Under the pieces are notes generated by a model that saw nothing but the letters and a program-made list of their open reading frames with translations, was not told the origin of the DNA and ran no database searches. Shown one piece after another: positions 3,001-38,835 of a DNA stretch of 64,000 nt. Source of the stretch: a virus. Taxonomy: Duplodnaviria > Caudoviricetes. Within the stretch, counting starts at the first letter, position 1. Every line of letters starts with the position of its first letter. The DNA lies in the IMG/VR virus record IMGVR_UViG_3300013936_000021, positions 1-64,000 of that record, one strand, 5' to 3'. A program made the position numbers and the translations under genes.

Positions 3001-4840
3001 ACCGCTCGGCACCATTACTTGACCGATAGATACTTGGCATGAGGTATTGGCTCGGGAGAATCCAAATCCTGTCGGTAACGTGTATTTTAGCGACGTTATC
3101 GGCATTTTCCTTTTCTATCAGCCAATCAGTTCCATTAAACGAAAAAGAAGTGCTGTTATGCGGCAAATTTTTAATATCGTTAATCTCTATACCACTCTCG
3201 TCATACGGGACACTCTTATCGTTGCCGTAGGTGAAATAATACTCGCTTGATGGCCTGTAAGCGTAAGTAACATTTCCGGAAGCGGTTATGCTGATGCCGT
3301 TCAGTTTCTTTGTGCCTTTAGCTACAGCTATGTTGCTGGCCGTAATACGGCAACCTATAACGATGACAGTTTTGGTCGAAGAGACAAAGCTGCATATCTT
3401 TTCCTCCGACTTGGTGAAGTTTCTTAAACCAACTAAATTATCGCCAAAGCTCCATGCTTTTGAAGCGTTTGCCACACTACCTCCGAAGCTCCCGCTATGT
3501 GAATGATCCTCGTCTGCCTCGTCCTCTTTGCCGGCATTTTTTAGATGCTTGAACGCGGTAGCAATGTCCATGTCGTCCCCAACATAGTAGGAGTACTCGT
3601 AATTGAAAATTAGACCGAATTTATCTTGCCCCTCGTCCTCTGTGGCATTAAACTTTAAATCATCAAGTTTTACAGAACCATTTTGTATGCTGTTAAACGC
3701 AAACAGAAAGTAAGTAACAGCTTCGGATTGCAGCCTGCTTGACGATGAAGTTCCACTCGAGCTGTAAAATTCTCCCATTTTAGCATGGAAAATGACACTC
3801 TTTGCGCCTTCGCCTACTCCACTACCCGTCTCAGAAGTATAAACAGACGCTAAGTATTGAGACAGTCCATATACATTCGCACTGTACTCCTGCTCGCTGT
3901 TTTTCCCAAGAGATAAAATCTCGTTATAGATGTTACTATTCCACCCGAAGACTTTGCCAAGGTTAATGTTTTGAACCAAAGATTTGTCGAAATTCTCTGT
4001 TTCAAAAACGGCTTTTCCATATTCGTCATCGTTTGGATAGTAATACGGAATGTTGTCTGATGAGCCGTGTCCGGTTATCATATCAACAACTTTACTATTG
4101 GCGTTTTCTTTGCTAATGGACAACAATTCATTATTACGACCGTAACTAAGAACATACTTCTTGGCGAAATTTCCGTCTATGCTAAGGTCGCTTTGCTGCT
4201 TGCCAACATGGCACACTTTGCCTATCCAGTAATAGGTAAGGCCGAAAGTTGAGTATATAAGTTGAAGGACATCCGTAATATATTGATCTTCGAACGAGAC
4301 CTCTTTCACATCGTCTGTTCCGTACCCTTCGTCAACAACGACATAATATCCTTTGTCGCTACTACTGGTAGGACGATATATTCCGCAATAAGAAAGCGAA
4401 CTGTTTATCCTGGAGACAAATTCATCTATCGTTCCCCCAAACTTGAAAGAGGTCTGGTTGGAACGATATTTGTCTTCATCTTGCGAACTCGCATCCTCTG
4501 ATACTACATCAAAGAAAAGTGTATTATCGAGGATTTCTCTTTGAGACGTGAATGTAACATCATATTTGTACATCAAGGATGAATTGTCTTTGCTCATGCT
4601 TGGAGTGTAGCTTACATAGAATCTTTCTCCAAGAAATTCCACAAACGCGCCTTTGTTCCAGACAATCGGCTCCATTGAATAGATAGTCGCCGTCAATGTA
4701 GGAGCTCCGCCCATACGCTTACTCTCATAAGTGTACGAGCTGATTTTTAGCGCGCAGCTTTCAGACGGGAATAAAGAAATCTCTTCAAGCCCGTCCTCAT
4801 TCAGCAAAGAATGCTTTATGTACAAATCGCTCTTATTCAT
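1..4840 (-). CDS. Large tail/baseplate-hub/receptor-binding protein, truncated by window edge (>1600 aa)
   Basis: ATG at 4840 overlaps portal stop (MNKSDLYIKHS...YESKRMGGAPTLTAT); same frame is open at the left edge; absent from the ORF track, consistent with running off the window; segments such as YLSKQADTAKGRITFEQGL and FFELVIDKIKAAGG resemble Bacteroidota phage tail proteins. Confidence 0.75.
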   Translation of the reverse strand, partial: MNKSDLYIKHSLLNEDGLEEISLFPSESCALKISSYTYESKRMGGAPTLTATIYSMEPIVWNKGAFVEFLGERFYVSYTPSMSKDNSSLMYKYDVTFTSQREILDNTLFFDVVSEDASSQDEDKYRSNQTSFKFGGTIDEFVSRINSSLSYCGIYRPTSSSDKGYYVVVDEGYGTDDVKEVSFEDQYITDVLQLIYSTFGLTYYWIGKVCHVGKQQSDLSIDGNFAKKYVLSYGRNNELLSISKENANSKVVDMITGHGSSDNIPYYYPNDDEYGKAVFETENFDKSLVQNINLGKVFGWNSNIYNEILSLGKNSEQEYSANVYGLSQYLASVYTSETGSGVGEGAKSVIFHAKMGEFYSSSGTSSSSRLQSEAVTYFLFAFNSIQNGSVKLDDLKFNATEDEGQDKFGLIFNYEYSYYVGDDMDIATAFKHLKNAGKEDEADEDHSHSGSFGGSVANASKAWSFGDNLVGLRNFTKSEEKICSFVSSTKTVIVIGCRITASNIAVAKGTKKLNGISITASGNVTYAYRPSSEYYFTYGNDKSVPYDESGIEINDIKNLPHNSTSFSFNGTDWLIEKENADNVAKIHVTDRIWILPSQYLMPSIYRSSNGAERFYYALNRTHLLPGGSGEYYKFANEYKEGVPHQGSVSFDDIKPTINGVRNDVIRKDGLGQLFGEIADVAFDSGDSDVKDSDDNYVHSYFYIKLHKFSGDYGFDLFKHILASESAKINLIKSNGCPACSFEIGCYWDSQKAKCYNNVQTDGDGNLKSYRTDANDYILPDSLVEEQTANQDSTKEELWICVKKDDSTLGTIMPNASAGFKPQKGDLFVLTGIKPPKVLITAAEKRLDEALIKYMSENNEDQFNYSVKFSRIYLQNNADFSDLLNENSKLSVHVDGEYAEDGSELYHNLFVSEYSVKADEDILCEVSVTLVNSLETTEGDAKNIVDAVKDDVAQSVTNRLGNKGSSSSFNASVADKMYLSKQQADTAKGRITFEQGLTSDGDADINGDERVGGDERVEGNAEVGKDLGVHGDATVDGNLNVGGETYLKDLTVSGSAHFFELVIDKIKAAGGTYIFSAANSFNVDRVIAGNNVVRLYWLAENGGKGSMNTWEVGDQAISMDFNRAKVGETFSASNKYWWALVTATSGDTPESVEEENGTKHLYHWIEVSTLEKADGCTVEAEVGDAVAQWGSRSADKKRQAAQMIAAYKSPDTGVEAPCWVQYVGINSFTITEDNRLNRVAYNGNVFKGSFVATSEGEQGRDLLEWLESLQRENDTHFDIWYGDEVPSLENEPAVEWTTDSKKAEHVDDLYFDRSDTAKSDGGHCYRFVATTKDSLTTYTWEDYTDHDTLKALTKAQNIADDGVVTAGTEKMQLLITLKNMQSEFSSFSEPTTDSSVSYTQAYGAYKKAYNNFVSATQDIVSDANIGKDTILSDIGLTSESYVNLYYNYYSTLGKMLEASEASIKASISTIGGRIEMAVTKNGLKTAGMTVEDEHITLDAKKTTVKGDLTVQGAITDSTSYVGMDGSLWSPNEVGELEKSSANLLVGDGNTLFVPVDMSTIKSVQIQTADPSLVSDGNPTNASTALVTLPMYDAVDLGCGVTMPAYRRSGTHVLV

Positions 4841-6383
4841 TTCCGCTTGAAGTTTGAGGTTGATTATTGCTTGTCAAATTTGCTTCTATCGCCTTCCTCT
4901 CGGCTTCCTCCTGTTCCTTCTGTATTCTAACCTCTTCATCAGGAGCCGATATGGTATTCTTTTCTATTCCAGTCTTTGTGGAAATGAGATTGCTTCCCTT
5001 TAAAGTACACAACATTTGATTCCATGCGCTTTCGTCGAATGGTTGCCACGGCTTTAACGACGTACTGATTTGCATTTGCGCATATTCCGTTATTGCCGTA
5101 GGGTTCTCTCCGCTTGAAACGAGCTGCTTTGCCAAGCCCTCCTTGAACAAACGCGAATGTTTGCTAACGAAATTCTGCCATTCTATCACCTCGTCACAGG
5201 ATTTAATAATATCAAGAGACCGCGTCATTTGTATTGCCAGGCCACTAATATCGCCGCTTGACTTCACGTCCTTAGGGAGAATAAAAGTGGTTCCTACGGC
5301 GATTTCTATCTGGTCAAGAATGGCCTGCATGAAATCTATCATGTTTTGAGGAGAAGGAGGTGTCTTGAAATCGGCAGACCCGCTACCATCAATACTTGTA
5401 TCGTTCAAGATAATAGACCCCGCAATCTTCTTGACGCTTTCATTGAATTTACCCTTGATATACAAAATACCCCATCCGTGTCTCTTCTGAATAACGGCGA
5501 AGAGATTAAAGATAATCTCGAATAGCTCCATCAAGTCCTCACCGCCTTCCCAAGCGACTTTTCCTCGCTTTGTGACAAGTGGGCTTTCGGAAAAACCATG
5601 GACTTCCGAATACTCCAAATTCCAGCCCCTAAGAACTTTGTCGGACTTATTTTTATCATCGTCAACAGATACGGCAAAGTTGTCAGAGAAGTGGTAATGA
5701 TAAGTATCGTCGTAAGCGTCAATGTGCCTCACGTTGTCATCCGTTTGATAATACACGCAATCCATCAACGGCTCTCCGTTGTCATCCTTGTGAGAGATGA
5801 TTTGATAACCGTCCTCATACGAGAACAGGCGAGCTTTAACCTCGTTATTCTCATTCATATAGATGAGCAATCCTACGTCTCCAAACGATTTCTGTATCTT
5901 GATGGCACGATAGCCGATCCCGTCCTGATTTGTGTTCTCCCAATGCCACTTAAAATCGGCAAAGTTCTTCTTTAGCTTGTCTGACGGATTACCGTCGTGT
6001 AGGGTGTGCTGCCTTCGATTGCCACCGAGATAAAGAGACTGCGCCCTTACCGTGCCTTGCTGCATAGGAATGCCAAACCTTTTAAACTCTATCTCTTGAT
6101 AACCACCGTCGTCAGTCTTTATACAAATACTTGGTAGATTTGTGTCGAAGATTACCTTGTGGCAATTAGGGTCAAGCTCCTTGGCAAACCTTTCTTGGCT
6201 CACTATATTGCGCTTTATGTTTGGAAGGAGCGCTTCTCTGCGATTTTGTGTTGCTATCTCACAACCATCGTTGTAATCACTAATGGACGCAGAACTACAG
6301 CCTCTTAAAAATGGCTTTTTTAAGAGCAGCTTTCCAGGGTTCGCCAAAAAGTCGTTTATAATATCTTGCCTCCTTCTACTCAT
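4833..6383 (-). CDS. Portal protein
   Basis: 516 aa downstream of terminase genes; SGxAI motif (DISGLAIQM) and C-terminal IS-KT..E typical of SPP1-like portals. Confidence 0.75.
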   Translation of the reverse strand: MSRRRQDIINDFLANPGKLLLKKPFLRGCSSASISDYNDGCEIATQNRREALLPNIKRNIVSQERFAKELDPNCHKVIFDTNLPSICIKTDDGGYQEIEFKRFGIPMQQGTVRAQSLYLGGNRRQHTLHDGNPSDKLKKNFADFKWHWENTNQDGIGYRAIKIQKSFGDVGLLIYMNENNEVKARLFSYEDGYQIISHKDDNGEPLMDCVYYQTDDNVRHIDAYDDTYHYHFSDNFAVSVDDDKNKSDKVLRGWNLEYSEVHGFSESPLVTKRGKVAWEGGEDLMELFEIIFNLFAVIQKRHGWGILYIKGKFNESVKKIAGSIILNDTSIDGSGSADFKTPPSPQNMIDFMQAILDQIEIAVGTTFILPKDVKSSGDISGLAIQMTRSLDIIKSCDEVIEWQNFVSKHSRLFKEGLAKQLVSSGENPTAITEYAQMQISTSLKPWQPFDESAWNQMLCTLKGSNLISTKTGIEKNTISAPDEEVRIQKEQEEAERKAIEANLTSNNQPQTSSGNE

Positions 6384-6978
6384 CTTTGCTTTCGTTTAAT
6401 GATTTAACATCCTCTTTAAAATCTTGTTTTTCGCCGGAGCTCGCTTCGTTATCCTGCGGATCTATAAGCCCGAAATGCTTAACGCACGCTTTCCGTGTGG
6501 GCCAAAAATTACATTCCCGTCTTGTCATTGGGCACACAATATCATGCTTGCTTGGCACGACTATGATGCGTTTTTGTTTCTGGCTTTCCTCCATTTCAAA
6601 CTTGTCGTTCAGTTTTACACGAAGGTCTCCTTCCAGCTTCAAAGCATCTTTTACCTCCAATCCTCCATTCTCGCCTAACGCTTGAACTCTTGCGAGTAGC
6701 TTTATCAGGTCTCCTTTGTTTTGTTCTTTTGTGATGGAATTACTGTCAATTGATCCTATACCGAATGGCTCCAGGGTATCAAGAAGCTTCTTGAATCTTG
6801 GGGTTTTATAGAAAGCGCCAGCCTCTTTGTCGCTTTTGCGATATGCCAAGCGGTAAGCCAGCGTCTTATCCTCGATGGCATCACAAAGGATAGCGAAAGC
6901 AATATCCTTTTCGCTTGCTTTGTCCCAATCTGCTCTCACAGTTTCGAGGATCATCTTGATATTTTCCTTCTTTAGCAT
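6376..6978 (-). CDS. Conserved phage protein, possible terminase small subunit
   Basis: 200 aa helical protein (AYRLAY) between terL and portal; mainly positional. Confidence 0.45.
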   Translation of the reverse strand: MLKKENIKMILETVRADWDKASEKDIAFAILCDAIEDKTLAYRLAYRKSDKEAGAFYKTPRFKKLLDTLEPFGIGSIDSNSITKEQNKGDLIKLLARVQALGENGGLEVKDALKLEGDLRVKLNDKFEMEESQKQKRIIVVPSKHDIVCPMTRRECNFWPTRKACVKHFGLIDPQDNEASSGEKQDFKEDVKSLNESKDE

Positions 6979-17500: not shown

Positions 17501-20333
17501 AAACTGGCAGGAGGTTGAAAAGCGGCTTTCTACTGTCGCCAAGAACGCTAAAGAAATAAAAATAGACGCTTCAATAAGAAAGTTATTCAAGCCGGGGGCG
17601 ATACCAATGGCACAAAAGACCATTAGCGTTTCCAAACTCCGAGCACTTGTCGCCGAATACAAGAAGGCGGCTGCTGATACGGCGAAAAACGCTTACGGCG
17701 TAGATCCGTTCGAAAAACAGAATAAAAAGGAAAATGCAAAGCAAGAGAAGGCTCAGCGAGACCTTTTGCAGGAGCGGATCTCCCTACTGAAGGATATGAA
17801 CTCCAAATACAATGAACTTGTAAAGAGCGAAAGCGAGGAGCGCGCCTTGTCTGAAACCCGCAAATACTTCAAAGAGGCCGCGAGCAATGTAGGATGGAGC
17901 GCAAACGATATTTTTCCTGACGATAAGTCTGTTGCGAAGCGCATTAAGGAGATAGGAGCGCAATACAAGGACTTGTCCAAGAGAGGCGGTGCCTTCAGGG
18001 CATCAGCCGACATCACTCTCAACATATCAAAGAAAGAGTATGATAAGATGAAGGATGAAATCTCGCGCAACGTAGACGACGCCTTCTCAAACTTACAACT
18101 CTATAAGAAGTTGAATAGTGAAGGACTTTCCGACAGGCTCATAAAATCCATGTTTGGAGACATGTCCACTTCATTTAAGGAGGTTGGGGATGCTATCGAC
18201 GACGAGTTTAATAAGTATATCATCAAGGATTATGAGACAAAGTACGGAACCGACATAAACAAATGGGGAGAGAAGGTTATTGAGCAGTATAATAAAGACC
18301 TCTACAACACGGCTGACGTGTTAAAGAAGCGTTTTGGTGATAGCGAAATTTACCAACAGTACCTTGACAAAAAGCAGAAGCTCGATCAACAGGTAAGGCA
18401 AGACACGGTTGAACAGGCGCAGGAGTTGATAAAGGCGTACAAGCAGCAGCTTTCAGACCAGCTCCAGCTTGACAGATGGTATATTGACGAACGGAACAAG
18501 ATCCAAACAAATGCAGATATAGCAAAGAACCCCGAGCTACAGAAGCAACTTCAAGAAAATCTTGACAAGCAGTATCGCCAGAAGACGGATGCTAACACTT
18601 GGAAAGATTTTCAGAACAGCGACATGTACGTCCGGCTATTCGACAATCTCGAGCAAGTGTCATCTAAGGCTCTCGATGCGATGGCCGAGAAGCTTCAATC
18701 GCTCCGCACGAGCTTGAAAGACCTCGACCCTACACAATTGAAAACTATTGTTGACCAAATCAACAAGGTGAATGAGGTTCGCAATTCGCGTAACCCATTC
18801 AAGGCTCTTGTGAGTGGGTATAAAGAGATGATAAAAGCGAGCAAGGCGCTAAAATCGCTTGGTGGAGTAGAAAGATATGTTGAGCTAAACAGTCAACGCT
18901 CCACGTTTAAAGAAGATCTGGAGGCATACAACAGACTTGTCGAAGTTTTAGAAAAGCAGTATGATGAAGAGGTAAAGATAAACGGAGAAGAGAGTGACTT
19001 GGCAAAGTCGTTGTCTTTCCGCCTTTCCGTCAACAAAGGTATTCGCGACAATCTCAAAGCGCAGCTGCATCTCACCGATGAGCAGATTCAGAAAATCGGG
19101 GAGGTAATGACGCAAGAAGAGGCATCTAAGGCTAAATTCGTAAAATCAATAGACGACATCAGCTCAATTGTTTCTTCCATACAGTCAGCTTTCGAAAGTC
19201 TCTCTTCATCCTTTAGCGTGTCTTCGCAAGCTATAAGTAGCGCGTTCACAATTATAGAGGGCACTCTATCTGCGGTAAAAGGCATTAAAAACAAGGATGT
19301 TGCCGGAACCATCTCTGGCATAACGAGCGCATTGAGCGGAATTATCAGCCTATTTGGTAGCGAAAGCGGCATTGATAAGGAGATACAGAGACAGCAGCGC
19401 GCAATCAGCAGGCTTCAAAACGCATACGAGAAGCTAAAAAAGTCTATGGACGACGCTTTTAGTATAGACCGACTGTATGAGTATAACAAGAAGTCTGTTA
19501 ACGCCTTAGAGAAGGAGAAAAAGGCATACGAGGCAATGGTTGAAGCCGAGAAGGGCCGAAAGAATCCCGACGAGGATAAAATAGACGGATGGAATCAGCA
19601 AATCAGTTCCTTGAACGATACTATTCAGGAATTAGAAGAATCTATGACGGAGGCTCTTGGAGGATTTGGTAGTCAATCTAACTACAAGTCGGCTGCAGAA
19701 GCTTTCGCTGAAGCCTGGGTGGATGCTTTTAATGAAGGCAGTGACGCTCTGGACGCACTTAATGACAAGTTTGACGACTACTTCGACAACTTGCTCAAAA
19801 AGCAGAGTGTTCAGCGCGCTTCTGAACGTTTTATTCAACCCATTCTTGAAGCTTTTGATAAAGCCGTTTCAGAAGGGAGCGAAGGCGGAAACAACGGCCT
19901 TGAAGTCACAAAGAATGAGCTTGACAATCTCAAAAAGCTCAAAGATGAAAACCTTGCCGCTTATAACGACTATCTTAAAAAAATGATGGAGATGCTCGGT
20001 GTAAAAGCAACAGGAAGCTCTAACATATCAGCTTTGCAGCAGGGTATTCAATCCGTGACGGAAGGAACGGCACAAGCCCTGGAGAGCATCTTGAACTCCA
20101 TGCGCTACTACCTCGCTACGCAACAAGCAGACGTGAGGATCATTAGAGACACGTTAATCCAACGTCTTAACTCCGTAATAACGCAATCGGGAAGTGACAG
20201 CGGGAACATTATGGTAAGCCTCATGCAGCAGCAGGTGGGTTACCTTCGTCAGATATGCGACAATTGGGATAGCGTCTTGAAAGGAGGCCATAAGCAAGGA
20301 GGAAAGGGACTAAAAGTATTCATTAACGGATGA
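14595..20333 (+). CDS. Tape measure protein
   Basis: 1912 aa helical; tape-measure domain (AVKSPFRIKDL...LILAYGQVKAAAYLRGSEVRQF). Confidence 0.93.
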   Translation: MAKSALGAALEIPKSALAAIDAADKKLKDIQATATNTANSVNSAFGTMTAGTKPFIDALDQIITKLGTINASASNAGSGLGSLGQGLGNIGNGASKAVQDLNNLVNQLSNVGGNGTSSIMQAVFAFKRLQESAKGASGMNIAELKEEIRSINSILRDTSYNLTKADQDSLNKRKKLLQDELKYQEQINEERVISFQKALDRMVSAQTAYNNKQKAAYKATANDYKAQNYSQNTTYQGALDFSSKANTLNRQAKAIEYLKEARMKLSQADSDYKQKLTALNSAIEKHIKNLKEAGMNSRTLGEQTSYLAGYMSRLAQRTAVVFSISAAKNFVEQIAEVRGQFELSERSLEAILQNKPKADEIFNKTVELAVKSPFRIKDLVDYTRQLSAYRIESDRLYDTTKRLADVSAGLGVDMGRLILAYGQVKAAAYLRGSEVRQFTEAGINMYGELQQYFKEVKGEAYTTAQIVDMISKRKVTFEDVEAIFQRMTDKGGTFYNMQEIQAETLQGKISNLKDAFDVMLNDIGKANQGTFNSMISAGTSLLNNWKAVANVGEALISILVTLKARSLFLKSSWGMAFSQADSKGLVRYKALFTNAFNSMGQAMKSFGTIAKTSLVGLGIFAAIEAVTTIIEKYQDYKKKVQEANDETIKAQGAIGAIAGSYDKLASAAKSANENIAGGDLEKNIEDRRAQLQKLIDLAAKDGLNFKINVDTINEEDLDKKFKDIKEKYQDFVDSINAIEQQYAHNNAWNTWFTDGLDDDAGDYNEVVIDFLSKSSQMEQVIAVVNANYDKATNATKRYFDEVRAGQKDGESNLEYWQRMYIAISNITANVPGAFEWFRSVRDASLDMSNGMAKIRREASELTAEFDAVFGDLRKKYNNDPIRIQAAIDRTAAKHDWSQYEKELAYRHFGINVSINKDSVEKEVSWVDDYIRDYFAKQKFGINLSVKTIDDDKALDDFISKGDQAAKAAKNWQEVEKRLSTVAKNAKEIKIDASIRKLFKPGAIPMAQKTISVSKLRALVAEYKKAAADTAKNAYGVDPFEKQNKKENAKQEKAQRDLLQERISLLKDMNSKYNELVKSESEERALSETRKYFKEAASNVGWSANDIFPDDKSVAKRIKEIGAQYKDLSKRGGAFRASADITLNISKKEYDKMKDEISRNVDDAFSNLQLYKKLNSEGLSDRLIKSMFGDMSTSFKEVGDAIDDEFNKYIIKDYETKYGTDINKWGEKVIEQYNKDLYNTADVLKKRFGDSEIYQQYLDKKQKLDQQVRQDTVEQAQELIKAYKQQLSDQLQLDRWYIDERNKIQTNADIAKNPELQKQLQENLDKQYRQKTDANTWKDFQNSDMYVRLFDNLEQVSSKALDAMAEKLQSLRTSLKDLDPTQLKTIVDQINKVNEVRNSRNPFKALVSGYKEMIKASKALKSLGGVERYVELNSQRSTFKEDLEAYNRLVEVLEKQYDEEVKINGEESDLAKSLSFRLSVNKGIRDNLKAQLHLTDEQIQKIGEVMTQEEASKAKFVKSIDDISSIVSSIQSAFESLSSSFSVSSQAISSAFTIIEGTLSAVKGIKNKDVAGTISGITSALSGIISLFGSESGIDKEIQRQQRAISRLQNAYEKLKKSMDDAFSIDRLYEYNKKSVNALEKEKKAYEAMVEAEKGRKNPDEDKIDGWNQQISSLNDTIQELEESMTEALGGFGSQSNYKSAAEAFAEAWVDAFNEGSDALDALNDKFDDYFDNLLKKQSVQRASERFIQPILEAFDKAVSEGSEGGNNGLEVTKNELDNLKKLKDENLAAYNDYLKKMMEMLGVKATGSSNISALQQGIQSVTEGTAQALESILNSMRYYLATQQADVRIIRDTLIQRLNSVITQSGSDSGNIMVSLMQQQVGYLRQICDNWDSVLKGGHKQGGKGLKVFING

Positions 20334-20339
20334 TAAATA

Positions 20340-20507
20340 CTAAGTGCTACGCGAGAACGGTTCATCTGCCGTCTCGCGTAGCGCTATATATACGGGCATG
20401 CCGTTTGCAGCTATTGATTTGTACATAGTCGCAAGTAACGCCATCGTCTTGCCATTCGGTGGGGTGACATTCCGCCATATCCTTCTAATATCCTTGTCTG
20501 TCCTCAT
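20340..20507 (-). CDS. TRD-like mini-gene G (55 aa)
   Basis: Manual translation MRTDKDIRRIWRNVTPPNGKTMALLATMYKSIAANGMPVYIALRE...; shares ATMYK..NG with module F. Confidence 0.65.
   Translation of the reverse strand: MRTDKDIRRIWRNVTPPNGKTMALLATMYKSIAANGMPVYIALRETADEPFSRST
20346..20382. terminator. Bidirectional hairpin between convergent operons
   Basis: GCTACGCGAGA...TCTCGCGTAGC inverted repeat. Confidence 0.6.
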
Positions 20508-20665
20508 AACTTTCAAGAATATACGTTACACCATTGTTGCCACCGCCCTTGTACATGGTAGCGCAAAGGGTAACTGATTTCTCTCGCCCCCCCGATGGAA
20601 CATTCCACCAAAGAGAATGTTCTTAATCCTCCGTTAATCTGTGGATGTACTTGGTATCTTCTCAT
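20485..20665 (-). CDS. TRD-like mini-gene F, frameshifted at G7 run (OFF)
   Basis: MRRYQVHPQINGGLRTFSLVECSIGG / REKSVTLCATMYKGGGNNGVTYILESYE; G6 or G9 at 20587-20593 restores frame. Confidence 0.65.
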
Positions 20666-20846
20666 ATACTTCAAGTAAGTAATTAATCTGCCCGCCCGAC
20701 ATTACGGAACTTGTCTTCTCGTCGGGTCTGCAAGAATAGGCAAGCAGAGTGCATCTTGTGCCATATTTCCGCTCGCCTAAAGAATATTCTTTCCATACCT
20801 TTCTGCCGAGTTCAGTGCGGTATTGGTTAAGTATTTTCCTTCTCAT
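20634..20846 (-). CDS. TRD-like mini-gene E (70 aa)
   Basis: LNQYRTELGRKVWKEY...RPDEKTSSV...YLLEVYE; paralog of module 0. Confidence 0.7.
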   Translation of the reverse strand: MRRKILNQYRTELGRKVWKEYSLGERKYGTRCTLLAYSCRPDEKTSSVMSGGQINYLLEVYEKIPSTSTD

Positions 20847-20990
20847 AAACTTCCAATATTTTTTTTACCGACCCATCGGGAGCGCCTGCCTGAATACATA
20901 TACCCCCCCGTAAATGGAGTAAAACCTATGACGTTGCCGGGTAGTATTACCCCATTCGTGATTTCCGTTAAGTTGTATCGGTCTTCTCAT
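20827..20990 (-). CDS. TRD-like mini-gene D, frameshifted at G7 run (OFF)
   Basis: MRRPIQLNGNHEWGNTTRQRHRFYSIYGG / GICIQAGAPDGSVKKILEVYE; G8 at 20903-20909 restores frame. Confidence 0.65.
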
Positions 20991-21117
20991 TCTCGTAAAA
21001 TTTTAGCAGGCAGTCGCTTTGGGAGTTGTTTCCCGCTCCGTTGGCACCAACACACAAAGCCATCGCCTTGTTCGATTTTATAAGCCAGCCCCTACGGCTG
21101 ATTCTTATTTGTCTCAT
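20968..21117 (-). CDS. TRD-like mini-gene C (49 aa)
   Basis: MRQIRISRRGWLIKSNKAMALCVGANGAGNNSQSDCLLKFYENE. Confidence 0.65.
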   Translation of the reverse strand: MRQIRISRRGWLIKSNKAMALCVGANGAGNNSQSDCLLKFYENEKTDTT

Positions 21118-21122
21118 ATACT

Positions 21123-21284
21123 CTAAATATATACCCAACGATGCGCAGTCTGCAAACATTGAGGCTTTGCAGAAACAAATGATATTGTACCAAATTCCGT
21201 CAGACTTCCTTTGTGTCCGTCATCCTGATATGGTCTTAGGCCGTCTGCTGTTATCTGCACCCCATATAGTCTACGCCTTTTCAT
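21123..21284 (-). CDS. TRD-like mini-gene B (53 aa)
   Basis: MKRRLYGVQITADGLRPYQDDGHKGSLTEFGTISFVSAKPQCLQTAH...; start overlaps YE of module A. Confidence 0.6.
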   Translation of the reverse strand: MKRRRLYGVQITADGLRPYQDDGHKGSLTEFGTISFVSAKPQCLQTAHRWVYI

Positions 21285-21420
21285 ATATTTCTATTATTCC
21301 CGTATGTTGTCTATGGCCTGCATAAAACCACCAACTTAAATATTTCACATTCAAGGCGGTGGATTTAGCAGTTGGTTCTGTTACGCCATTACCCATTTTA
21401 AACGCCCTTTGCTCCCTCAT
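21271..21420 (-). CDS. TRD-like mini-gene A (49 aa)
   Basis: MREQRAFKMGNGVTEPTAKSTALNVKYLSWWFYAGHRQHTGIIEIYEKA; start overlaps MTase 3' end. Confidence 0.6.
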   Translation of the reverse strand: MREQRAFKMGNGVTEPTAKSTALNVKYLSWWFYAGHRQHTGIIEIYEKA

Positions 21421-22648
21421 GATAAATTGACTTCAATCGTTCCATTTCGGACGAATAAGCGATTTCTGCAATTTCGGCCTTTTCTTTGCGCGTAAGGCCG
21501 TCAAACTCTTTTCGCTTGTCCATGTAAGCCACCATGTCGTTAACGCTCACCTGCGGCTCTAAAAGATAACCTACGAGCTTCTTTTTATCCGTCTTGTCAA
21601 TGAGCTGTTTGACCGTGTCATCTTTCAGGTAATACTTCTCGTCCGCTTCGTCCTGGAGAATGTCTTTGATAAACAAATTTCTGTCTTCTGGCTGAGGTAT
21701 ATCAGTCACAACATTAGGCCATGAAAACGGGTCGTCCTCGCCCGCTTCCGAGAATAACTTTTCTTGCTGAATGGTTTTTGTGCGAATATTCGTCCAATAT
21801 ATGCGCCTTCTGTTCTGTGCAGAAACCAAAGCGGAGTTTATGTGAACACCACGCACGCCAATAGCGTGGGAAAGGCATCTCTCCCATTTCTCTAACATCT
21901 TTACATTTTCGAGAAAGAAATAGATGTCCGGGTTGTACTTGCGCAAATCTTCAAGTATTCGCATATACTCCCAAAACAGGTAGCTTTGTCCTTCAAAAGC
22001 AAATCCTTGCGCTTTTAAATCGAGGTATCGTTTGAGCGTAAATACCTCCTCGCCACTCTTCGTGCTCATCCCTTTCATTTTCCCCGAAAATGAAAAACTC
22101 TGACATGGACTTCCTCCAATCACAATGTCTGGTACACCGTATCGTTTAACAAGATCGTCAACGTTCACATCTGTAACGCTTCCCAATTGAACAGTCTTCG
22201 GGAAATTGTGCATCGTGTTTGCGATGGCGTATTTGTCAATTTCGGAGGCTAAATATAAGTCTACCTTGAACCCGAGGCTTTTTAGGGCTATTTGTCCGCC
22301 CGACATTCCGTCAAACAACGACAATACCTTTATGCCTCCCTCTTTCAATCTCTTTGGCAAAAAGCCAAAAATATGCTTTATCGTCTCGATGTTCCATCCG
22401 TTGCCGAGACACTTGTATTGCTGTGTTTCAGAAGTCACAAACTCATAATCTGATGGAACCGTTTGTAGTCTGGAACACTCCGTTGGAGTTAAACGCCTAA
22501 TGGCCGCGAGGTAACTTACTCCCCCCCCCATATTGATTTCTACGCCCTGTTTGTTATCGGGCATTCTTGTCCTGAAACCACGGAGCTGCTCCGCCTTTGC
22601 GTCCGCATAGACTTTTCTTGCGAACTCATGCTTTTCTTTACTTGTCAT
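21398..22648 (-). CDS. C5 cytosine DNA methyltransferase, circularly permuted, no obvious internal TRD
   Basis: Motifs IX/X (RRLTPTECSRLQT; YKCLGNGW) precede I (SLFDGMSG), IV (GGSPCQSFS), VI (LENV), VIII (QNRRRIY); in-frame G9 at 22521-22529. Confidence 0.92.
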   Translation of the reverse strand: MTSKEKHEFARKVYADAKAEQLRGFRTRMPDNKQGVEINMGGGVSYLAAIRRLTPTECSRLQTVPSDYEFVTSETQQYKCLGNGWNIETIKHIFGFLPKRLKEGGIKVLSLFDGMSGGQIALKSLGFKVDLYLASEIDKYAIANTMHNFPKTVQLGSVTDVNVDDLVKRYGVPDIVIGGSPCQSFSFSGKMKGMSTKSGEEVFTLKRYLDLKAQGFAFEGQSYLFWEYMRILEDLRKYNPDIYFFLENVKMLEKWERCLSHAIGVRGVHINSALVSAQNRRRIYWTNIRTKTIQQEKLFSEAGEDDPFSWPNVVTDIPQPEDRNLFIKDILQDEADEKYYLKDDTVKQLIDKTDKKKLVGYLLEPQVSVNDMVAYMDKRKEFDGLTRKEKAEIAEIAYSSEMERLKSIYHEGAKGV

Positions 22649-22662
22649 AATCTCAACTATAA

Positions 22663-22859
22663 TTATATGCCGTATAATTCAAATTCTAAATTGTCGGGAA
22701 CGAAAGTCGTTATACATCCTGATTTAAGGTCTGGCCTCGGTTGGTACGATCTCATATTGCTTCTTTTGCAAATCTCATTTCTTACCCCCCCCCATCATAC
22801 AGTTTCCGGAGTTTTTTCCCGAGGTCATTCCTATACTTGTTAAGCGTTATCACTTTCAT
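22663..22859 (-). CDS. TRD-like mini-gene 0, frameshifted at G9 run (OFF)
   Basis: MKVITLNKYRNDLGKKLRKLYDGGG-stop; G10 (or G7) at 22785-22793 gives ...VRNEICKRSNMRSYQPRPDLKSGCITTFVPDNLEFELYGI. Confidence 0.7.
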
Positions 22860-23385
22860 GGCCTACCCATTTGCTTTTGGTTACATCTTTGCGAAGAACG
22901 GTTCCGCCATAGTTCTTGACAACAATATTATTCCCAGCCCCATACACAAGCAGTTCGACTTTTCCGTTATTCTCTATACGCACGCTACTGCCTCCACATA
23001 TATAAATGCGGCAAACTGCGTGTTCCGGTATCTCAATTTCTATATCATCACAATACCCGATAAGCAGGAGCGTGGATTCCGCGCTTAACACTCCATGCGC
23101 CCCAATATACATTTCGCTGGCGTAACCTTCCTCCTGGCGCCTGTAAAAACCATTCATGAACTCGCCAAACTCTTGCATAAGGTATTCCTTGGATAATCCC
23201 CAACCAAAAGCGATGGCATCGGCCATGAATTCTATGCCATTACTGTCAAGAGCCATGTCAACGAGCTGCTTCTTACTGGCGCACGCATCCCACTTTTCCC
23301 TATACTTTTCGCAGAGCCCCATTAATATAGACTTGCGTTTTAGGTCTACGAGGCTAACCTCTCCGCTTTTACCTTTATTCACCAT
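22840..23385 (-). CDS. Conserved Bacteroidota phage protein (GLC..Y..KW N-terminus, beta-repeat C-terminus)
   Basis: 181 aa ORF in operon. Confidence 0.6.
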   Translation of the reverse strand: MVNKGKSGEVSLVDLKRKSILMGLCEKYREKWDACASKKQLVDMALDSNGIEFMADAIAFGWGLSKEYLMQEFGEFMNGFYRRQEEGYASEMYIGAHGVLSAESTLLLIGYCDDIEIEIPEHAVCRIYICGGSSVRIENNGKVELLVYGAGNNIVVKNYGGTVLRKDVTKSKWVGHESDNA

Positions 23386-27095: not shown

Positions 27096-27698
27096 CTATA
27101 TCCAACATACTGTTGTGTCTCCTTTGTAGCCCTTCTGCCATACGAACCACGCATAAGACACAGCCGAGCTCTTTAAGTCACCAAACTCCCCGTTTATAGC
27201 GCATAGCACGCGCTTTGTGAACTGATATATACACTTGGGGGGGGTAGACTTGAAAATCTTATCATACCTGCTTTGCCCTTCAAGAAACGTCGTCTTCAAG
27301 AACATGGCGCAATACTGGCCTTCATGGAGTAGCTCCAAGGCATGGAGGACAAACTCTGTCGCATACTTGTATGGAGGGTTGGTGATGATGCAGCAATCTC
27401 CCTTGTATGGCATTTTGTCCGCAGCGAGAAAGTCCTGTACGTAGCCATACCCGCGGTCGATAATGTCGGACGACGTGACTTCGAAGCCGAGATCCTTCAG
27501 CCTTTCTGACAGGTGCCCCTTTCCGCAAGCGCACTCCCAAACGTGGTCCGGAAAGAAATCGCAAGCGGCCATGAGCTTGTTGATGGCCATTGGGTCGGTG
27601 GCGTAGAAGTCGTTCTTCTCACGCTCTTTGCCCGAATGGCTCGACGCGCCAAGGCAGGCAAACGTTGACTTCTTGTTTCCGTCCCAATCCTTAGGCAT
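27096..27698 (-). CDS. Amino (N6A/N4C) DNA methyltransferase
   Basis: DFYATD, WECACGKG SAM-binding, IITNPPY catalytic motif, YAWFVW. Confidence 0.85.
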   Translation of the reverse strand: MPKDWDGNKKSTFACLGASSHSGKEREKNDFYATDPMAINKLMAACDFFPDHVWECACGKGHLSERLKDLGFEVTSSDIIDRGYGYVQDFLAADKMPYKGDCCIITNPPYKYATEFVLHALELLHEGQYCAMFLKTTFLEGQSRYDKIFKSTPPKCIYQFTKRVLCAINGEFGDLKSSAVSYAWFVWQKGYKGDTTVCWI

Positions 27699-28257
27699 TC
27701 GCCAACTCCTTTCCGCCGGCAGCCAGCCAGCTCTCAATCTTGTTAGACGACGACGGATAAGTCTCTCCGAACACGTTCTGAAGTTTCACCTGACACTCCA
27801 GGTATGGAATATCCTTGATGTTGTCTGTACTCGGGCTTATTTCGTCCTGCAACATGAATAACGCCTTGCGCTGCCTGTAATCGTCCTGCCACAGGATAAG
27901 GCCGCCACGGAGGAACTCAACCAGGGCATGCCAATTGTCTTCGGCGGTCTTGATCTGCTCGGTGACGCTCAACGCGGTAGGGCTGCCGGGCGCAAACCCG
28001 AACGACAATACCGTCAGCGTTGACGTGATGGCTTCTTGTGTCGGGGTAGGAGACACAAACACGCGAAGGCTGTCCGCCTCAGCGTAACTCTCCGTGTACA
28101 CGCCCTTCTGCTTGCCAAAGGCGTTGATGCCTGTCATGGACTTGTAACGGCAAAAGCCGAAGTCGTCCTCCAAACTCTTCGTGTCACCATCCTTGGACCA
28201 AACTCCAGAAGTCTCGTCCTTGAGGTATTTCGTCAAATGAAACTTTAGCTCTGCCAT
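27691..28257 (-). CDS. Hypothetical protein, possibly distal tail-like structural protein
   Basis: Beta-rich 188 aa; function is inference only. Confidence 0.4.
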   Translation of the reverse strand: MAELKFHLTKYLKDETSGVWSKDGDTKSLEDDFGFCRYKSMTGINAFGKQKGVYTESYAEADSLRVFVSPTPTQEAITSTLTVLSFGFAPGSPTALSVTEQIKTAEDNWHALVEFLRGGLILWQDDYRQRKALFMLQDEISPSTDNIKDIPYLECQVKLQNVFGETYPSSSNKIESWLAAGGKELANA

Positions 28258-36429: not shown

Positions 36430-36888
36430 ATGAAGAAAATAGAATTTGTAGGAGGCGTTGCACCCGAGCTGGCGCAAGTAATCGAAGATAACAATATTGT
36501 TGCCACGTGTGTTGACGGGAACGTTTGCGGGATAAGCGACGAGGATTATTCCAAGTTGAAGCATGTGGCTCCTGCTGCATGGGACGGCAACGACATCGTA
36601 GATGTAGACGTGTTCACTGTCTATTACAACAACAACGTTGAGGTTTTCAAGATTAAAGAGTTTCCAACGCTTGAAGAAGCCAAGGCTTATTGTGACGACG
36701 AGACGAGAGGCTACGACGAAGTGGCCGACGGTGACAACGACTACGAAGGCCGCAGCAACAATTTCCGCTATGAGGTTTACGATGGTGAGCCTATAGAGGA
36801 GTTCTTTGATGAGGACGGGGAAGTGGACGACGAGAAGACCGTCTTCAAGGAACCCGTGTATCAGACGAAGCAGTATTATTGCGACTAA
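36430..36888 (+). CDS. Highly acidic protein (possible DNA mimic)
   Basis: Very D/E/Y-rich 152 aa. Confidence 0.55.
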   Translation: MKKIEFVGGVAPELAQVIEDNNIVATCVDGNVCGISDEDYSKLKHVAPAAWDGNDIVDVDVFTVYYNNNVEVFKIKEFPTLEEAKAYCDDETRGYDEVADGDNDYEGRSNNFRYEVYDGEPIEEFFDEDGEVDDEKTVFKEPVYQTKQYYCD

Positions 36889-37030
36889 GCCCCGATTTAA
36901 GCTTTCTGACGGCCTTTTGCGGGCGGTGTGGATAAGTTGTCCACATGGCGAGTGGGAGGCCGTTAAATCGAAAATAACGCCGTTTTTCGGCATTTTTAAA
37001 TATAACTCATTAAAAACACATTCAAGAATT

Positions 37031-37273
37031 ATGAAAAAGTACAATTTGGTCAAAGTTGAGAATGGCAAGGAAGAAGTCGTGTTGGAGAACGTTTCTATTG
37101 AACTTGCAATTGCCTACGTTAATGTGCGCAAGGCAGACGGCCTTGTGAGCGTCAACAGCCTTGACATCGTTCAGCAGATGGACGTCGAGAAAGAGGGCAA
37201 CGTCGTAGTCTTCAAGGCGTACGATGCAGAGCCGGCATGGGAAGACAAGCTGACGAAGAAGCCGCAAGAGTAA
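37031..37273 (+). CDS. Hypothetical protein
   Basis: MKKYNLVKVENG...; followed by terminator. Confidence 0.55.
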   Translation: MKKYNLVKVENGKEEVVLENVSIELAIAYVNVRKADGLVSVNSLDIVQQMDVEKEGNVVVFKAYDAEPAWEDKLTKKPQE

Positions 37274-37330: not shown

Positions 37331-37454
37331 ATTCCTTTCGCAAAAGAGGGGGCTTTTGGGGGGGGAGTTCCTGTAAGAAAAAAATCATGTCACTCTTTTA
37401 GAGCATGTTCAACTCTTTTTGAGGTTATGGCGAATTTTTCGGAGCGTCATCGAA

Positions 37455-37998: not shown

Positions 37999-38835
37999 AT
38001 GGACGCATTAAAGATTTTCAGCAACCCGAAGTTCGGGCAGGTTCGCATCATTACAGATGATGCAAGTGGCGAATTATTGTTCTGTGCCAACGACATCACG
38101 CAAGCACTTGGTTACGCAAATGGAAGAAAAGCGGTTGCAGACCATGTGGAAGAGGGGGATGTAACGAAACGTGACATGGGGGTGGTTACAGGAAAGAAAG
38201 CAGACGGAACAGATGCTTTTCAGATTGTCAGCACGACCTACATTACAGAGAGTGGTGTTTATGCGCTCATCTTTGGAAGCAAGCAGGAACGTGCCAAGGA
38301 GTTCAAGCATTGGGTAACAAGCGAGGTTCTTCCTTCCATCCGCAAGACAGGTCAGTACAGCGCTAATCAACCACAAACAACCTTGCAGGAGCAAGTGAGC
38401 GCAAAGATAGCCTTTGCCGATTGGAGCGCAAAGTTCCTCAACCTCAACGATGCAAGCAAGCTGGGGATTGCGCAGAAGATTGGCAAGATGGTTGGCTTGG
38501 ACGACGCACTGCCCAAAGCGGTGAACGCAGGAACGGAGCTTTCAGTCACTCACGCTGCCACAGACCTCCTGAAAGAGCACAACGTTGGTATTTCCGCACA
38601 AGCCTTTAACCGAATGTTGGAGATTAAGGGCATTGTGAAGAAAGCCACTCGCCCTGGCAAGCAAGGAAAGGTTCACAAGTGGTACGTGATCACTCCTGCT
38701 TTCGGCAAGTACGGTGAAAACCAGCAAGACCCGAACCACCAGCAGCAGACGCAGATACGATGGTACGACGCACTCTTTTGCGAGTTGCTCAACATCGTTG
38801 GCTTCAACAAGCAAGCACTGCTGAGCATAAAGTAG
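37999..38835 (+). CDS. BRO-N antirepressor-family protein
   Basis: FSNPKFGQVR, FCANDITQALGY, ITESGVYALIFGS, WVTSEVLPSIRKTG. Confidence 0.9.
   Translation: MDALKIFSNPKFGQVRIITDDASGELLFCANDITQALGYANGRKAVADHVEEGDVTKRDMGVVTGKKADGTDAFQIVSTTYITESGVYALIFGSKQERAKEFKHWVTSEVLPSIRKTGQYSANQPQTTLQEQVSAKIAFADWSAKFLNLNDASKLGIAQKIGKMVGLDDALPKAVNAGTELSVTHAATDLLKEHNVGISAQAFNRMLEIKGIVKKATRPGKQGKVHKWYVITPAFGKYGENQQDPNHQQQTQIRWYDALFCELLNIVGFNKQALLSIK

Follow-up and report, generated by a model that had tools for sequence, protein, structure and literature searches.

A gut phage C5 methyltransferase locus with a chain of putative target-recognition mini-genes and length-variable homopolymer tracts

How does a DNA methyltransferase choose its target when its gene seems to hold no complete target-recognition domain (TRD), and what are the very short open reading frames (ORFs) that crowd around it? 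Both questions are raised by a locus at positions 20340-22859 of IMG/VR virus record IMGVR_UViG_3300013936_000021, a gut phage sequence of 79,361 bases. The stretch that we studied, called the window below, is the first 64 kb of that record. The locus consists of one C5 cytosine DNA methyltransferase gene, called the core, with one mini-unit upstream and seven downstream. We read it as a multi-part C5 methyltransferase with trans-acting, phase-variable TRD subunits, and put the probability of that mechanism, taken in full, at roughly 65%. The anatomy and conservation of the locus, the TRD homology of the units and the polymorphism of tract lengths are documented directly; from these we infer translation, binding, module specificity, a switching rate and a benefit.

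The core gene and the chain of mini-units

The methyltransferase gene lies on the minus strand and lies next to the 3' end of a gene that encodes a tape-measure protein of 1,912 amino acids (aa), with which it converges.

21398-22648, minus strand: C5 DNA methyltransferase core, circularly permuted, 416 aa, PF00145; in frame (ON) in the window

The product matches PF00145 with an E value of 1.3e-39 (137 bits against a cut-off of 22), which places it in the C5 cytosine DNA methyltransferase family, and it also matches phrog_116, DNA methyltransferase. Its translation contains the strings FDGMSGG, GSPCQ, LENV, QNRRR, RRLTPTE and GNGW, which correspond to motifs I (FxGxG), IV (PCQ), VI (ENV), VIII (QxRxR), IX and X. 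The protein starts with an N-terminal helix and a hairpin, continues with IX, X, I, IV, VI and VIII, and finishes in a C-terminal helical region, so that motifs IX-X are N-terminal to I-VIII. When aligned by blastp with the normal-order, 426-aa enzyme of a Prevotella isolate (locus L078), the core matched as two segments in swapped order: residues 106-357 align to L078 residues 1-234 (63% identity), and residues 14-97 to residues 340-420 (51% identity). The family match, the swapped segments and the motif strings bear out an earlier note, made from the letters of this DNA, which had described a permuted C5 methyltransferase with its catalytic motifs. That note had also called the core TRD-less. 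In line with this, ~105 residues of L078 (235-339), where recognition modules are recognisable by eye, have no counterpart in the window core. Furthermore, the N-terminal and C-terminal ends of the core are both conserved in 12 relatives, and the core therefore has no hypervariable part.

Eight mini-units lie on the same strand as the core, unit 0 upstream of it and units A-G downstream. For units with a homopolymer tract, the tract length was varied in silico to find the in-frame length; such units are ON when in frame and OFF when frameshifted.

22663-22859, minus strand: unit 0, putative TRD mini-gene of the E type, upstream of the core; frameshifted at G9 (OFF)
21271-21420, minus strand: unit A, 49 aa, intact, without a tract; ATG 23 nucleotides (nt) before the core stop
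21123-21284, minus strand: unit B, 53-aa ORF that ends ahead of the putative docking motif; truncated
20968-21117, minus strand: unit C, intact, 49 aa counted from its junction ATG
20827-20990, minus strand: unit D, OFF by a frameshift at G7
20634-20846, minus strand: unit E, 70 aa, intact; partner in the complex model
20485-20665, minus strand: unit F, OFF at G7; 5' half of one unit type and 3' half of another
20340-20507, minus strand: unit G, intact, 55 aa counted from its junction ATG
20343-20385, no strand assigned: inverted repeat with 14-nt arms, where the array end meets the converging tape-measure gene; possible terminator

In units 0, D and F the reading frame shifts precisely at a run of G (G9, G7 and G7), and unit B stops early because the tract found there in relatives is interrupted by substitutions in the window. 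The earlier description of eight overlapping mini-ORFs thus stands as to their presence on the minus strand and their recurrence in relatives, but only A, C, E and G (4/8) are intact ORFs.

The units share a C-terminal hhEhYE motif (of the type hydrophobic-hydrophobic-E-hydrophobic-Y-E). The start ATG of the next unit is embedded in the YE codons of the preceding one, in the +1 frame, and for this reason units start with M followed by K or R. Overlaps between units measure 11-35 nt, and direct repeats (family D1) are present at every junction. This ending, previously described as hydrophobic-E-x-YE, and the ATG embedded in it are the sharper shared features; the K-x-x-x-L core proposed alongside is a weak motif. 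The assignment of 0/E and F/G as paralogue pairs was correct. A regular expression for the junction is loose, with 2.3 occurrences per kb in arrays against a background of 0.4-1.1 per kb, and serves to illustrate the geometry, not as a detector. Pfam returned no significant family for seven units at E values up to 1, the single match being a chance-level one to an unrelated family; membership in Methylase_S (HsdS) was not found in that search. PHROGs assigned a family to none of the four intact units.

We rejected an alternative genetic code, since under table 11 both the core and the tape-measure ORF of 1,912 aa are open, and the reading frames break at homopolymers. A repeat search revealed no template/variable repeat pair, and a diversity-generating retroelement was rejected on that ground.

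We compared the window with related loci to assess the conservation of this structure. A scan of viral contigs yielded 71 loci, 17 of which (L002-L018) have a permuted core that is 59-73% identical to that of the window. Unit chains follow the core in 17/17 of these IMG/VR loci, usually with one unit before the core, and also in L076, a contig of a metagenome-assembled genome labelled Prevotella, which carries a fuller version of the window array. A scan of genome contigs found further permuted loci, all from metagenome bins. Arrays range from ~4 to ~12 units, of about a dozen types told apart by eye. Comparison of array content, as the earlier note had proposed, showed that five closely related loci (87-94% identical across the array) differ by whole units and by tract lengths. 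In the cultured-phage records the enzyme has the normal order only: among the 238 that match the core, none was collinear over at least 80% of it; the inspected record BC669P3 (L073) encodes an ordinary 368-aa enzyme with no array. A tblastn search of 50,697 cultured phage records with unit E, the only type queried, gave no match.

Orthologues of individual units help to interpret the broken ones. Unit 0 is intact in L003, L006, L007, L012, L017 and L076. Orthologues of unit D are intact without a tract in L006 and L007, and ON in L012 and L076. The parents of the chimeric unit F are both present in L076 (5717-6158) with one further unit between them, and the window unit therefore looks like the product of a deletion between two G tracts. 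The tracts may thus also act as recombination points that reshape the array (unit F, 20485-20665, against L076:5717-6158).

We next asked whether the mini-units evolve as coding sequences. In 31 comparisons of intact window units with their orthologues, the synonymous rate (dS) was saturated in 25, where the nonsynonymous rate (dN) was ~0.2-0.6. The six computable dN/dS values were 0.04, 0.05, 0.11, 0.16, 0.16 and 0.46, with unit A at 0.16-0.46 and unit E at 0.04-0.11. By this sequence measure, the mini-units are coding and under purifying selection. These values and the recurrence of arrays in 17/17 permuted loci go well beyond what chance would produce.

Other features of the relatives were recorded. 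The core gene carries non-tract breaks at L015:4717, L018:4520, L016:4335 and L006:4065 (one gain of a 4-nt TTTC repeat, one loss of 5 nt and two changes of 1 nt). Natural populations seem to lose the enzyme often, unless these assemblies contain errors. One sub-lineage (L009:5326-5523, L010, L011:5338-5676 and L018) has a small, zinc-ribbon-like protein with two CxxC pairs within the unit chain, joined by the same overlapping junction; in L011 this protein is fused in frame to a TLTAFY-type unit. Normal-order relatives (L020-L023, L027, L030 and others, at about 4001-6100) often have two adjacent C5 methyltransferase genes of ~380-470 aa and then ~275 aa, with stop and start overlapping. In L078 and L079, prophage copies of a Prevotella isolate, ORFs of 9-residue repeats and of GSG/GYG repeats (5151-5636 and 6135-6599) sit downstream of the normal-order methyltransferase.

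Homology and modelled docking of the units

If each unit is a recognition module, related modules should be found within longer methyltransferases. Among 1.84 billion representative proteins, an E/0-type profile matched 51; of these, 34 are stand-alone proteins of at most 100 aa and 17 are longer. All ten of the longer proteins that were checked (10/17) are PF00145 enzymes, in which the unit occupies the TRD position or the N-terminus of permuted or split forms; in a 469-aa normal-order enzyme, for example, it corresponds to residues 322-375. The only name found for stand-alone cluster members was 'hypothetical protein' (2/68 members read). An in-frame fusion of a unit to the N-terminus of the core occurs naturally in L009-L011, which argues that unit and core function together.

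Local profiles of 11 unit types were then searched against 621 long ORFs of normal-order loci. The matches numbered 53 for E/0, 37 for G, 29 for AVRGR, 8 (weak) for D, 2 for B, 1 (weak) for QVHPQ and 1 for TLTAFY. Where match positions were read, they fall ahead of motif IX, in the variable region of a methyltransferase. Types E/0, G, B, AVRGR and TLTAFY are thus homologous to the part of the enzymes that varies between motifs VIII and IX, and D and QVHPQ weakly so; the earlier expectation that the peptides would match such regions held for 7/11 types. The G-type profile matches residues 338-368 of the 426-aa L078 enzyme (E 3e-11), and the B-type profile matches one of the tandem TRD modules in the enzyme of L081 (E 4.6e-10). 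In L081 and L082, two contigs from Muribaculaceae bins, the encoded enzymes are of normal order, and ahead of motif IX they carry a tandem of B-like, AVRGR-like and E/0-like modules. This is the one-chain layout of the multispecific Bacillus phage enzymes, and the array thus looks as if the modules of such an enzyme had been parted into individual genes. In the assemblies, these two enzymes (L081:3492-5218 and L082:3477-5125) are themselves broken up over two or three frames. A word-index search for longer proteins containing A-type or G-type units found none; this is weak evidence, and the local profiles did find G-type modules in long enzymes. Against chains in the PDB, the E/0 profile gave only chance-level matches to a mitoribosomal protein (E 0.7).

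A complex of the core with unit E was predicted from shallow alignments of 12 and 8 rows. The model scored 0.76 (runs 0.73, 0.79 and 0.76), and the best of three controls scored 0.00. In the calibration of the tool, the score mark was reached by 58/80 solved complexes and 2/110 mismatched pairs, counts that are only a rough guide at this alignment depth. Contacts agreed between runs by at least 78%, and the predicted local distance difference test (pLDDT) of the partner was 55-62. In the model, the shared end motif of unit E (residues 54-64) pairs with the core strand that immediately precedes motif IX (residues 44-53). Unit E also contacts core residues 182-183 (the catalytic PCQ), 249 and 273-280 (motif VIII), and the region after motif VIII. 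The model thus predicts that the hhEhYE end is a common docking strand and that unit E takes the TRD position of the core; a complex model was among the checks that the earlier note had proposed. A separate AlphaFold2 model of the core, from the 12-row alignment, was poor (mean pLDDT 61, predicted template modelling score 0.48) and was set aside. Taken together, homology, the complex model and the variation among arrays give computational support to the idea, also in that note, that separate TRD peptides may serve one shared core; all of the note's checks that can be made in silico favoured it.

Homopolymer tracts and their length variants

The homopolymer tracts, which are the most directly documented part of the locus, do not appear in the earlier note. 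The genome of 79,361 bases has six G/C runs of at least 7, and 4/6, including both runs of 9, lie within this 2.5-kb locus. We aligned contigs of four public runs from one study (X1-X4) to positions 20300-22900 of the window.

22785-22793, minus strand: unit 0 tract, C9 on the plus strand and G9 in the gene; 4 bases shorter in X2, X3 and X4
22521-22529, minus strand: core tract G9, codons 41-43; shortened by 1 base (X1, X2) or by 2 (X3, X4), out of frame in either case
20903-20909, minus strand: unit D tract G7; 2 bases longer in X3 and X4; X2 contigs break there
20587-20593, minus strand: unit F tract G7; 1 base longer in X3

The contigs of the four runs are otherwise nearly identical to the window: no insertion or deletion in the 2.6 kb lies outside these four tracts, and the main X1 and X2 contigs are free of substitutions. 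X3 and X4 have three single-nucleotide polymorphisms (SNPs) in common and also three tract lengths. Because tract lengths are shared by runs that share SNPs, the differences are heritable and not random noise. For unit 0, which is in frame at a tract length of 3n+1, the observed lengths are 9 (window and X1) and 5 (X2-X4). The locus therefore shows what is seen at contingency loci: an in-frame repeat tract with frame-shifting length variants, and length polymorphism among near-identical genomes.

The relatives show the same pattern. Across 18 loci we counted 60 G/C runs of at least 6 in 55 kb of array span versus 0 in 66.6 kb of upstream flanks. In 52 normal-order loci the counts were 0 (158 kb, same span) and 3 (192 kb). 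In all, 16/60 tracts are ON and 44/60 OFF; for 58/60, a one-base change restores an ORF that reaches the shared end motif. In-frame tract alleles differ by one Gly or Pro. Orthologous units, and the core, occur in both states:

A type (orthologues of unit A with a C tract): ON in L004 and L005; OFF in L003, L014 and L017
TLTAFY type: ON in L002, L004, L005 and L015; OFF in L003, L012 and L017
E type: ON in L003; OFF in L004
core: ON in L003 and L005; OFF in L012 and L014

In L006-L008 the corresponding units are intact without tracts. We regard the hypervariability of the tracts as very probable.

The remaining two G/C runs of at least 7 lie outside the C5 locus, a C8 at 27237-27244 and a G8 at 37358-37365. 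The C8 run is in frame (codons S-T-P-P-K) within a second DNA methyltransferase gene.

27096-27737, minus strand: DNA methyltransferase, phrog_799 (E 8.5e-64), with an NPPY motif and hence of the amino-methyltransferase type

This gene may be another candidate switchable methylase. Its profile match begins at position 186 of 458, and the N-terminal part may reside in a separate ORF. The G8 run is without a clear ORF, between an ORF at 36806-37273 and an Ant-like anti-repressor gene at 37999-38835 (phrog_130).

Proposed mechanism, alternatives and known systems

In the mechanism that we propose, one constant, permuted catalytic core, with all ten motifs and no variable recognition module, would serve a row of separately translated proteins of 45-70 aa, each of them one target-recognition module. 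The hhEhYE β-strand of a module would pair with the N-terminal strand of the core before motif IX, and this pairing would set the module beside the catalytic loop, where one-chain enzymes have their TRD. Modules would bind the core singly, and each would confer its own target motif. Translational coupling is suggested by the chain of overlapping stops and starts, in which the ATG falls within the YE codons and is shifted to the +1 frame. Many modules, and the core gene, contain G or C runs of 6-10 bases that would change length by slippage, so that each module and the whole enzyme would flip between in-frame and out-of-frame states. The phage population would then carry mixed methylation patterns, a bet-hedge against differing host restriction systems, including methylation-dependent ones.

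Several observations weigh against this mechanism. Half of the window units are OFF or defective (0, D and F OFF, B truncated), and none of the tract lengths found in the window lineage puts 0, D or F in frame. The core is in frame only in the window version and out of frame in 4/4 runs. Among the 17 IMG/VR relatives the core gene is broken in six, in two at the G tract and in four by small non-tract insertions or deletions; such frequent breakage means that the system may be dispensable or decaying in places, or that some assemblies are erroneous. With neutral tract length, one third of the tracts should be ON, and the share found, 27%, comes near to that. Types A, C, ANDYKG and MTAHQ matched no long methyltransferase when their local profiles were searched against the 621 ORFs. 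The conserved N-terminus of the core (residues 14-50, helix and hairpin) aligns with the last TRD module and hairpin of the normal-order enzyme, so that the core is not wholly TRD-less; judged from this alignment, a core with such a TRD-like remnant might act on its own. The complex model could pass through likeness to domain contacts within solved one-chain C5 methyltransferases, and so speaks to the place of the TRD, not to binding. Finally, all data come from metagenome assemblies, and the runs were compared as contigs, which hide variants within a sample.

These points have to be set against other accounts of the locus. If the units are translated, they could still act in cis, with ribosomal frameshifting at the overlaps or RNA polymerase slippage at the tracts joining them to the core or to each other in a one-chain multispecific product. 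G runs of 7-9 could provoke transcript slippage, the overlaps are uniform and always +1, units are naturally fused in frame to the core (L009-L011 and the P0041 cluster), and relatives have one-chain tandem forms. However, joining all eight units would require ~seven separate shifts, whereas every unit has its own ATG at a fixed place. Gene callers also give the E/0 type as a stand-alone gene in many assemblies (34/51 matches of at most 100 aa), the free unit docks well in the model, and tract-length changes are real at the DNA level, so that slippage at the RNA level is not required. We consider action in cis unlikely. Untranslated silent cassettes, acting as recombination donors for an expressed site or as substrates for shuffling, would explain the D1 repeats at all junctions, the whole-unit differences between relatives and the formation of unit F by deletion between two tracts. 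For such cassettes, though, start codons and frame-preserving tract alleles would be needless; there is constraint on the units' own N-termini, and the conserved core ends leave no expression site with a variable module in the core. No recombinase gene was noticed beside the array, in the course of work that made no search aimed at recombinases. Silent storage is thus quite unlikely.

The ON share, the six broken cores, the degenerate look of units B and F and the reliance on metagenome assemblies speak for decay: the array would be a decaying remnant of a multispecific methyltransferase, and the tract differences homopolymer noise from sequencing or assembly. It is hard to reconcile with unit dN/dS values well under 1, with a distal frame that is still open for 58/60 tracts, or with lengths that are reproducible among SNP-sharing runs (X3/X4 agree at three tracts, and X1/X2 at one). 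The length differences are as large as -4 and +2, an A/T run of 8 in the compared stretch has no insertion or deletion, and the tracts (G/C runs of at least 6) are absent from the flanks and from the array span of normal-order loci in the same collections. Decay or noise is very unlikely. The mini-proteins might also bind the core only to regulate or inhibit it, or serve as DNA-mimicking or decoy anti-restriction peptides, without supplying specificity. A core whose remnant gave it a specificity of its own, and the lack of TRD homology in types A and C, would suit such a role; but 7/11 unit types match modules before motif IX in active-looking enzymes, and the great diversity of types suits recognition better than a common regulatory role. 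This account is highly improbable, and the reading of the units as trans-acting, phase-variable recognition subunits is the one that we carry forward.

How does such an enzyme compare with known systems? The Bacillus phage multispecific C5 enzymes (M.SPRI, M.Phi3TI, M.H2I and M.Rho11sI) have one core that works with several TRD modules of ~40-60 aa, and every module has a target of its own; the enzymes are borne by phages, presumably as protection from host restriction. The present locus resembles them in having one core for several short modules, and its relatives L078, L081 and L082 hold homologous modules in one chain. It differs in that the modules are separate ORFs in shifting frames with their own starts, many with hypermutable tracts, and the core is permuted. 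Tandem TRDs within one polypeptide, between motifs VIII and IX, are accordingly not found in the window and are found in the related one-chain forms.

M.AquI and M.EcoHK31I are described as C5 methyltransferases of two fixed subunits between which the conserved motifs are divided (PMC3404938). The likeness lies in the use of more than one polypeptide and in the fact that part of the variable region can lie on the second chain. Here, in contrast, all motifs reside in the 416-aa core, and the extra chains are many, small and interchangeable and would provide recognition only. M.BssHII is a circularly permuted C5 methyltransferase. Permuted forms of M.SssI and M.MpeI are reported to have been engineered (PMC5944983). 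As in our core, motifs IX and X precede I-VIII in these permuted enzymes. They are self-contained, each with its own TRD, and we know of no detached modules for M.BssHII, M.SssI or M.MpeI.

Type I systems combine a constant methylase with separate, exchangeable and switchable specificity proteins (HsdS), and phase-variable hsdS loci switch by inversion or by repeats. The logic is the same, but the HsdS system is an N6-adenine one with another fold, and the Pfam search found no sequence relation of the units to it. Bacterial phasevarions have host-encoded, repeat-driven ON/OFF methyltransferases (Mod and others), with one switch per enzyme; their TRD alleles vary between strains and are not switched within one genome. 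Phage contingency loci include polyG tracts in receptor-binding genes of Campylobacter Fletchervirus, T2/T4 loci and a polyG tract in a Bordetella phage methylase gene (10.1101/2025.10.21.683753). Homopolymer tracts, reversible frameshifts and mixed populations are common to both, but those loci are single genes, whereas here up to nine tracts per array would control the enzyme and individual modules.

Every component of the proposed system is thus known, and the combination of a constant C5 core, free interchangeable modules and a switch for each module occurs in none of the nearest systems. The earlier note knew of no prior description of the arrangement, and our full-text literature searches, which covered main texts, found none of stand-alone C5 TRD genes or of switchable phage TRD arrays. 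If trans action is confirmed, this would be a new architecture for the C5 methyltransferase class. We see an even chance that it is one: a constant permuted core with a library of free, interchangeable ~6 kDa subunits, docked by a β-strand, in which each subunit and the core are separately switchable, giving up to 2^n methylation repertoires per genotype and a bet-hedge between host restriction that is methylation-sensitive and restriction that is methylation-dependent.

Should the subunits act in trans, C5 methyltransferases, which have long been regarded as monomers complete in themselves, could take their specificity from detachable subunits, in the manner of Type I systems. This would bear on a long-standing question: how the several TRDs of a multispecific phage enzyme are brought to a single active site. 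The locus would also be a natural source of very small modules for DNA recognition that plug in by a defined docking strand and would be useful for targeted methylation. Gut phages would then be using multi-switch contingency loci for epigenetic counter-defence, which would affect views of Bacteroidales host range and of phage-host matching, as well as the annotation of metagenomic 'frameshifted' genes.

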